Of a DNA stretch of 64,000 nucleotides, positions 47,126-48,925 are shown one piece after another. Every line of letters begins with the position of its first letter. The first letter of the stretch is position 1. This DNA is from Camelus dromedarius (lineage: Eukaryota). The stretch spans positions 32,304,001 through 32,368,000 of the forward strand of contig NC_087436.1 in assembly GCF_036321535.1 (NCBI RefSeq), read 5' to 3'. A program made the position numbers and the translations under genes. Under the pieces are notes generated by a model. It was not told where the DNA came from. It made no database searches and saw only the letters and a list, made by a program, of their open reading frames with translations.

Positions 47126-47153
47126 ATTTGGTCCTTGGGTTTCCTGCAGCCAT
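47126..47153 (-). CDS. ABHD18: ABHD18 coding exon 6 (28-nt microexon; YGCRKPKDQI)
   Basis: Needed to restore the frame and the recalled conserved YGCRKPKDQ. Donor |gtaagt. Confidence 0.92.
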
Positions 47154-48840
47154 TTAAGGATGTGGGTCAAAGAGAAAGTTTTAAAATAATTAAGTACATT
47201 CTATGTCTCAAAACACATTGACTTAGGCAAAACAGTTCAATACAAGACAATTTAATGCTGAAATAACTATTTTATAGTCATCTCAAATAGGCTGTTTAGA
47301 AGTTCTCAGGTTTTTCAACTTAATTATTTTCCTTTTTCTTTTTTAAAAAAGTTTCATTAAGATATAATCATATACAATGAAATTTACCCATTTAAAGTGT
47401 ACAATTCAATGTTTTTAGTATATTTAACAGGATTGTCTAGTCTTCAACTTAATTTTAAAATGAAGTTTATGGCTTTTTCCATTTATGTTTATTATAGAAA
47501 GTCTAGAAAATACAGAAAAGCACATTAAAAGAAAAACTACTTTATCTTCAGATAACCATATTAATATTTTGGTGTATTTCTTTCCAGCATTTTCCCTTTT
47601 GCACAGTTTTAAAATAGATTTTCTGTTTTTAGATTTTTTTGCATACCTATTCCATACTGTAGAGTTTTATATCCTATTTTTGCACTGTAAGTAGTTTTCA
47701 TTCATTATTATAAACTTTTTAATAATAACTGTTAAAATTTACTGAATGCTTGTTATTTACCAAACACTGTTCTAGACAATATTAACTATTTAATACTCTG
47801 AATAACCTAAGAGATTATTCCTGTTTACCAATAAAAAGTTAAGGTACTAAAAGGTTAACTAACAGATCCAAGGTCATACAAGTACTAAGTGGTAAAACAA
47901 GTAATAAAGAAATAAACATAAAACAACCAATTGTATAACATTCCAGTGTTATGAACCACGATTTACTTAACTTTCTATTATTATACATTTAAGCTATTTC
48001 TAATGTCTTACTATTATGTTACAAAAATATCTTTTCTCTTTTCTATTATTTTCTTTTTTCTTTATATTTTATCCTTAGAATAAATTTCCCATAATCAAAA
48101 TCACTTTGTCAAGGAATATGAGATTTTTTAAAGCTCCTGATGCATATGGTAAAAATGCTTTCCCAGAGGACTGAACTGATTTTCAGTCATCAGTAACGAG
48201 AGTGCTCATTTCAAAATAGCCTCATGCCTGTTGTGAAATCTTTTGTAATTGTTGCTTTAACTTTACATTTCTCTTATTACCAGCAATGCTGAACATTTCT
48301 TTAAAACTGTATATCAGTTTCATTTCTTCTTCTGGGAATAGTCTGGCGTCATCTTGAAAATTAAGTTAAGAGCTGTTCTAAACCTCAACTGATACTTGAA
48401 TGTAAACACATTTAAAACATGAGGGTTTCCTTAATGGCAAAAGCTTGACTTACTAATTTTAAAATCCAGCATAAGTGTCAGAAGAAATAGAAGTACAGCT
48501 TACTTCTATTATGCAATAGAAGCAAGATCCTTAAATTGATTTTAAAATTAGGCATGAAACAATTTTTCACTTCATTCTTGCTTCTTAAATATTTCCTGAA
48601 CTGACTAAATTTAACTGGTTTGGAAAATCTGGTTCCTATCTACCATTCCTTTTGATTACTAAATCTGTAAGTAAGTAAGTAAGTAAGTAAGTAAGTAAGT
48701 AAGTAAGTAAGTAAGTAAGTAAGTAAGTAAATAAGTAAGTAAGTAAGTAAGTAAGTAAGTAAGTAAGTAAGTAAGTAAGTAAGTAAATAAATAGGGTGGG
48801 TGAGTGAGTGAAAAGATTTCTAGGTATCCCAAAAGGATAT
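47154..48840 (-). other. U12-type (minor spliceosome) intron of ABHD18 with AT...AA termini
   Basis: 5'SS ATATCCTTTT, branch-like TCTTTGAC at 47173-47166, 3' end TCCTTAA|ATGGC. This junction restores ENPYYGCRKP. Confidence 0.88.
48667..48786. repeat. (GTAA)n tetranucleotide microsatellite, ~30 units
   Basis: Direct reading; one internal variant unit. Confidence 0.97.
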
Positions 48841-48925
48841 AATAAGGGTTTTCTAACAGCAGAGAAGCCATCCGGGCTTCTTTAATCATTGGACGAGCCA
48901 TTAGTGTTCGTCGTCTCCAGTAATG
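48841..48925 (-). CDS. ABHD18: ABHD18 coding exon 5 (85 nt; [12 protein letters not shown]...LLENPY), followed by a U12-type donor
   Basis: ctcag| acceptor. Donor T|ATATCCTTTT. Confidence 0.95.

Follow-up and report, generated by a model that had tools for sequence, protein, structure and literature searches.

The AT-AA minor intron of ABHD18 is already known: it was listed in 2006, and tables from 2019 and 2021 include it. The 2006 record gives AT-AA ends for FLJ21106 in human as well as mouse, among three human AT-AA U12 introns (PMC1557818, Table 3, which gives the gene name and not the intron number). FLJ21106 is C4orf29 by alias look-up, and proteins of the ABHD18 family bear the name C4orf29 in the orthologue list. 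Supplementary tables place the human intron at chr4:128009192-128011672, with a length of 2481 nt and the class U12 AT_AA (PMC8280824), and the mouse Abhd18 intron at chr3:40916957-40919377, with a length of 2421 nt (PMC6717393). The supplements of PMC6717393 also record Abhd18/ABHD18 as a minor-intron gene in both species, with identical strings for donor and branch. No link of ABHD18 to minor splicing was found in the main texts of the open-access papers listed by the searches, and a search of PMC1874599 by term gave no match. The first-pass annotation of the camel sequence had accepted that an existing database entry would remove the novelty of the intron; it is in print and in databases, and the novelty is gone.

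Dependence on the minor spliceosome has been shown by others for the human orthologue. Retention of the long human intron rises on CENATAC depletion from a PSI of 0.11 to 0.62 and 0.59 (delta PSI 0.51 and 0.48, with adjusted P < 1e-10 for both). A patient line with mutant CENATAC also retains it more, by 0.24, while the effect of ZRSR2 mutation is not significant after correction (adjusted P 0.23; all in the supplements of PMC8280824). The same splicing would be expected in camel, for which a search of sequencing runs with window positions 36850-37900 listed no RNA data set. The closest described arrangements are the U12/U2 twintrons or nested introns, for example PRMT1, with an AT-AA U12 variant leading to NMD (PMC3564746; PMC8329584). 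As in those genes, a U12 and a U2 intron of ABHD18 overlap at one position and one outcome has a premature stop. ABHD18 is not among the 18 genes of the twintron table in PMC3564746. It is unlike them in that the long U12 event is the productive one, whereas the unproductive route passes through two successive introns, a short one of U12 type and one of U2 type.

ABHD18 lies within the window, the stretch of 64,000 nucleotides of dromedary DNA analyzed here. Matches to human and other orthologues place its coding exons from 56783 to 34275 (tblastn), and the gene was identified by a match to Pfam PF09752 on the exon upstream of the intron. The product is a lipase that deacylates cardiolipin (PMC12173737). 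Its GxSxG serine is S199 in the human protein, downstream of the junction considered here, and at least five exon junctions follow the minor intron in the tblastn exon map. A separate exon on the minus strand at 41060-40950, GVLSKSINW...LEYCG, is present in the window and missing from several orthologue models, including the 414- and 430-aa human forms; it is a cassette exon of 34 codons. The features around the minor intron are collected in Table 1.

Table 1. Features of the ABHD18 minor intron and of the exon nested in it (window coordinates)
Feature	Position	Strand	Remarks
ABHD18 fifth coding exon	48841..48925	-	85 nt, HYWRR...LLENPY; last base is first base of Tyr codon
U11-type donor ATATCCTTTT	48831..48840	-	Common to long and short intron; both human introns start at one base
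Long U12-type AT-AA intron	47154..48840	-	1687 nt, phase 1; orthologous to human and mouse intron
Branch site CTCTTTGAC, long intron	47166..47174	-	A at 47167 is -14 from AA and -24 from microexon AG
AA acceptor, long intron	47154..47155	-	Sequence, human table, camel model
28-nt microexon (Y-GCRKPKDQ)	47126..47153	-	GTAAGT donor directly after
AG inside microexon	47144..47145	-	10 nt after AA; U2-type acceptor in human RefSeq (128011682) and several orthologue models
Short AT-AA intron	48354..48840	-	487 nt (human 357 nt); same donor to nested AA acceptor
Branch-like CTCTTAAC, short intron	48365..48372	-	Last A at 48366, -13 from nested AA; human counterpart GTTCTTAAC
Nested 73-nt exon	48281..48353	-	Joined upstream reads TGA TGA; length as implied by human coordinates
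Inner GT-AG intron	47144..48280	-	1137 nt; donor CTG|GTAATA; nested exon to microexon AG; human 128009622-128011682
(TTAC)31 microsatellite in short intron	48667..48790	-	124 nt, about the length excess over human (487 vs 357)

The junction has the features of an A-type U12 intron. The fifth coding exon ends with AACCCTTATT at 48841, and the orthologue protein match is interrupted precisely at the intron position, Y148/G149 (tblastn). The intron opens with ATATCCTTTT at 48840 and closes with CCCACATCCTTAA at 47154, with a branch-like TCTTTGAC whose A lies at 47167; its end reads CTCTTTGACCCACATCCTTAA before the microexon. When it is removed the joined frame is LLENPYYGCRKPKDQ, with the peptide YYGCRKPKDQ. 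The first-pass annotation had described an AT-AA intron of 1687 nt with no GT at the junction, a 28-nt microexon after the AA and a branch-like A at -14. All three were found again, the exon at 47153-47126 in frame YYGCRKPKDQ with its junction in 52 of the 120 orthologue models, and the A within CTCTTTGAC. The donor fits the A-type 5' splice site consensus RTATCCTTT (PMC1635337), CTCTTTGAC agrees with the branch consensus TTCCTTRAY at seven of nine positions, and the ends AT...AA are of the AT-AN form of A-type introns. The same branch 9-mer was scored 0.88 in PMC8280824 and 78.8 in PMC6717393. The proposed U12 class agrees with that of the orthologous human intron, which is classed U12 AT_AA and has this 9-mer.

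The human and mouse introns are alike in position, phase, donor, branch 9-mer, AT-AA ends and start of the downstream exon. Compared by eye with the human strings in the supplements of PMC8280824, the window differs at one of 25 donor bases and one of 46 acceptor bases. The camel intron is shorter than both (1687 nt vs 2481 in human and 2421 in mouse), and differs from them in having a (TTAC)31 array 50 nt after the donor. An Rfam scan of 44300-57000 found nothing inside the intron.

The donor string alone is poor evidence. Its 9-mer ATATCCTTT occurs six times in the window against 1.55 expected, and the donor 9-mer taken by itself was rejected as evidence. The U12 call holds because the 9-mer lies at the exact base where the protein match stops and because the human intron has the same ends. 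Two further donor-like strings, GTATCCTTTA and ATATCCTTTG, at 29230 and 38891 on the minus strand, are off the known coding-exon ends and were taken as chance. U12-type introns typically lack an obvious polypyrimidine tract at the acceptor, and this one had been described as having none directly before it. This is correct in that an unbroken U-run beside the AA is missing, but 14 of the 18 bases at -20 to -3 are pyrimidines, the run being broken by A; over the same span two ordinary AG acceptors of ABHD18 have 16 and 11 of 18. Against the call stand the agreement of the branch with its consensus at only seven of nine positions and a second consensus-like string, TCCTTAA, which overlaps the AA acceptor and would suit an AT-AG cut 10 nt further on. 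This U12-branch-like string (47160-47144, minus strand) lies 11 nt before the inner AG, and could support such a cut, which would give an immediate TGA. It results from the camel base at -6 of the acceptor; the human sequence is TTCTTAA. Taken together, the intron is almost certainly a conserved, A-type, U12-dependent intron of ABHD18 with AT-AA ends, and its removal the productive event for the full enzyme.

The exact ends deserve comment, since the main junction can slide. Read from the sequence, a shift by one base gives TA-AA and a shift by two gives AT-AT, both with an identical mRNA, so AT-AA is fixed by the register of the U11 donor consensus and not by junction reads; such reads alone would not separate AT-AA from AT-AT. 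It is very improbable that the true ends are AT-AT, or that the AA is a sequencing error for AC. AT-AT U12 introns do exist (12 in the table of PMC1557818), and the slid junction gives the same mRNA. However, a donor moved by 2 nt reads ATCCTTTT and loses the RTATCCTT register, and the short intron, whose junction has no freedom to slide, starts at this very base in the human table. Against an error for AC stands the AA in human, mouse and camel. A camel protein model that reads through the acceptor agrees with the window over 25 residues and has K at the position for which AC would encode T. An assembly error at 47154 therefore appears very unlikely, given the AA in human, the AT-AA listing for mouse and the K in the camel model. 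The comparison of terminal dinucleotides in orthologues and databases proposed in the first-pass annotation leaves AT-AA standing. That reading overlooked both the sliding junction and the nested exon described below.

The order of events at the AT-AA junction would follow from established knowledge of minor splicing. U11 would pair with ATATCCTT at 48840 and U12 with CTCTTTGAC, donor and branch being recognized together. The A at -14 would branch, and the second step would cut a fixed short distance downstream, after the AA, with the 3' cut set by branch distance, tolerating AA and not needing an AG. The 28-nt exon would then be joined and the frame would continue to the GxSxG serine. From this donor, the frame stays open as far as that serine at 199 only if the long AT-AA intron is removed. 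The other splice routes run into a stop in the junction codon, since the last base of the upstream exon is the T of a Tyr codon. The nested AA acceptor produces TGA TGA, and the AG 10 nt past the main acceptor produces TGA; skipping of the microexon also yields a stop, as read by eye. Retention of the intron reads YYILL... and stops within it. Under the standard exon-junction rule, a stop upstream of later exon junctions leads to NMD, and with at least five junctions downstream the stop-bearing forms should be NMD substrates. The earlier proposal that full-length ABHD18 depends on the long AT-AA event is supported by these stops and by the greater retention of the human intron on CENATAC depletion.

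A second AA acceptor lies within the intron and defines a 73-nt exon that is shared with human. In human, NM_001319307.1 has a second AT_AA intron at 128009192-128009548 (357 nt) and a GT_AG intron at 128009622-128011682 (PMC8280824 supplements). The camel window has the second AA acceptor, the 73-nt length, the GT donor and the AG 10 nt inside the microexon, all as in human. The human form is tabulated only as introns in those supplements, and the camel arrangement is known from the genome sequence. The GT-AG intron at 48280-47144 overlaps the AT-AA intron at 48840-47154, and both are annotated in human. The branch A at 47167, being 24 nt before the inner AG, could serve both machineries. Stop codons, conservation and a regulatory role of the nested exon are not discussed in the main texts of the open-access papers searched.

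Two readings of the nested exon have to be weighed, and conservation bears on both. It may be a conserved, regulated poison exon that tunes the dose of ABHD18, a putative role that is compatible with the intron call and somewhat less likely than not. One U11 donor would pick between two AA acceptors, and the near one, helped by the GT donor at 48280 through exon definition, would lead to a stop and NMD. The three sites and the exon length are the same in human and camel. By eye and as a raw count, the nested acceptor region is identical to human in 45 of 47 columns, on a par with the main acceptor, and in both species TGA TGA comes next. The joined frame stops at once, before the GxSxG serine. 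Peptides from the exon occur in seven of the best 120 protein models (siamang twice, macaque, bonobo, ground squirrel, marmot and cat), that is, in three mammalian orders. These peptides have diverged (61-71% alike) and their join to the downstream frame varies by species, as expected without selection at the protein level. Alternatively, the exon is a low-level by-product that arises when a slow A-type intron lingers and splicing turns to a cryptic U2 donor and to a U12-like acceptor that is there by chance; it would be conserved for another reason or not at all. This account comes close to an even chance. The near-identical acceptor region, the identical exon length and the models in three orders argue against it.

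The transcript tables also bear on both readings. For the human intron, a CAT9 cryptic-exon event has enough reads to pass the filter in four of eight tissues (PMC6717393 supplements; the same row is in a supplement of PMC8034651), which favors a poison exon. On the other hand, the row is without exon coordinates and has the value 1 in seven of the eight tissues, so it gives no inclusion level; probably the main junction was not counted. The human sheet holds the sole match in the CAT9 table, with no Abhd18 among the mouse events (PMC6717393 supplements). The missing mouse event speaks for a by-product and against a poison exon. So does the CENATAC-mutant line: retention falls for the inner GT-AG intron (PSI 0.81 to 0.59; PMC8280824 supplements) and rises for the U12 introns, as is usual when cryptic U2 sites are activated. 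Several other points weigh against regulated use as a poison exon. The human spanning-read counts of 33 for the short intron and 34 for the long may be the same reads (PMC8280824 supplements), the human form carries an NM number in RefSeq, and ABHD18 is not in one supplement of a survey of conserved poison exons (PMC11632617). The intron shows no enrichment of branch-like 8-mers (4 vs 2.4 expected). RNA folding of the nested exon and its flanks showed no unusual structure (z -0.03). A full switch conserved in mammals, in which one U11 donor would serve two rare AA acceptors, the far one giving the cardiolipin lipase and the near one opening a 73-nt exon with stop codons whose other end is left to the major spliceosome, is somewhat unlikely.

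Several other observations concern the nested exon. A coding role was rejected, as the frame that leads into KPKDQ is interrupted by three stops, with no Met beyond the third. In the ground squirrel and marmot models the exon is joined to WKPKDQ, that is, at the inner AG. A candidate eighth match to the intron, P0085, was set aside as a chance match on the opposite strand. In the cat model (P0057) the nested-exon peptide is interrupted by GAPGWLS, which we take to resemble the beginning of a carnivore SINE and which may mark an insertion into the nested exon in cat. The (TTAC)31 array (48790-48665, minus strand) contains repeated CTTAC, which is U2 branch-like and 75% pyrimidine, and ends in CAG at 48665. 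This CAG, 176 nt into the U12 intron, is a possible lineage-specific decoy U2 acceptor.

Orthologue models show that the junction is at times mispredicted. The sample was the best 120 of 674 proteins; it is clustered and favors odd isoforms, and its counts are not error rates. ENPY is held by 69 of these 120 models. The correct YYG-RKPKDQ junction is present in 52, from mammals, reptiles and frogs, while 12 enter the intron as YYIL, three skip the microexon and two are joined otherwise, in agreement with the earlier expectation that gene predictors may misannotate this exon. The models that read in as YYIL come from mammals, birds, a lizard, a turtle and frogs, and their sequence suggests that the donor is kept across tetrapods. 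Among 12 aligned proteins the residues at the junction are invariant except at one position. Four of the 12 are unnamed and were called on short read-assembly contigs that must be spliced RNA (P0048, P0056, P0081 and P0102). In other models the fourth coding exon is joined to the AG of the microexon, as DHETQGP-type sequences in four (one of them alligator) and EQxIMKPKDQ-type sequences in three. The AG inside the microexon is thus a widely modeled, putative U2 acceptor.

The intron itself changes nothing, as the camel window adds one more mammal to a known case. For annotation it is relevant that 12 of the 69 ENPY models, among the best 120 of 674, read into it. Inhibition of ABHD18, including by antisense oligonucleotides, is in development for Barth syndrome (PMC13692403, whose text, searched by term, does not mention splicing). 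If the nested exon were a true poison exon, it would connect minor splicing with mitochondrial lipid remodeling in a way open to test, and would provide a simple minigene for the choice of the minor spliceosome between two non-AG acceptors. If the switch were true, the activity of the minor spliceosome, together with the choice of acceptor, would set the turnover of cardiolipin; the nested exon would be a natural splice-switching handle to lower ABHD18, an aim already pursued for that disease.

Other features were observed in the window. A decayed ORF with an RRM (Pfam PF00076) lies on the minus strand at 30406-30732 and is presumably a processed RNPS1-like retrocopy. The region 16000-18300 resembles a CpG island (GC 0.65) and includes a minus-strand ORF at 17486-16656 that is rich in Ala, Pro and Glu and has no Pfam match. 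It is probably the first exon of the neighboring gene, which by synteny we assume to be LARP1B. In the intron upstream of the fourth coding exon, a GC-rich insert at 49850-50511, with a poly-Ala-like ORF that has no Pfam match, lies between stretches of LINE-like ORF. A tRNA-like Rfam match of 31 bits at 50900-50971, the sole match in 44300-57000, is probably a tRNA-derived SINE.
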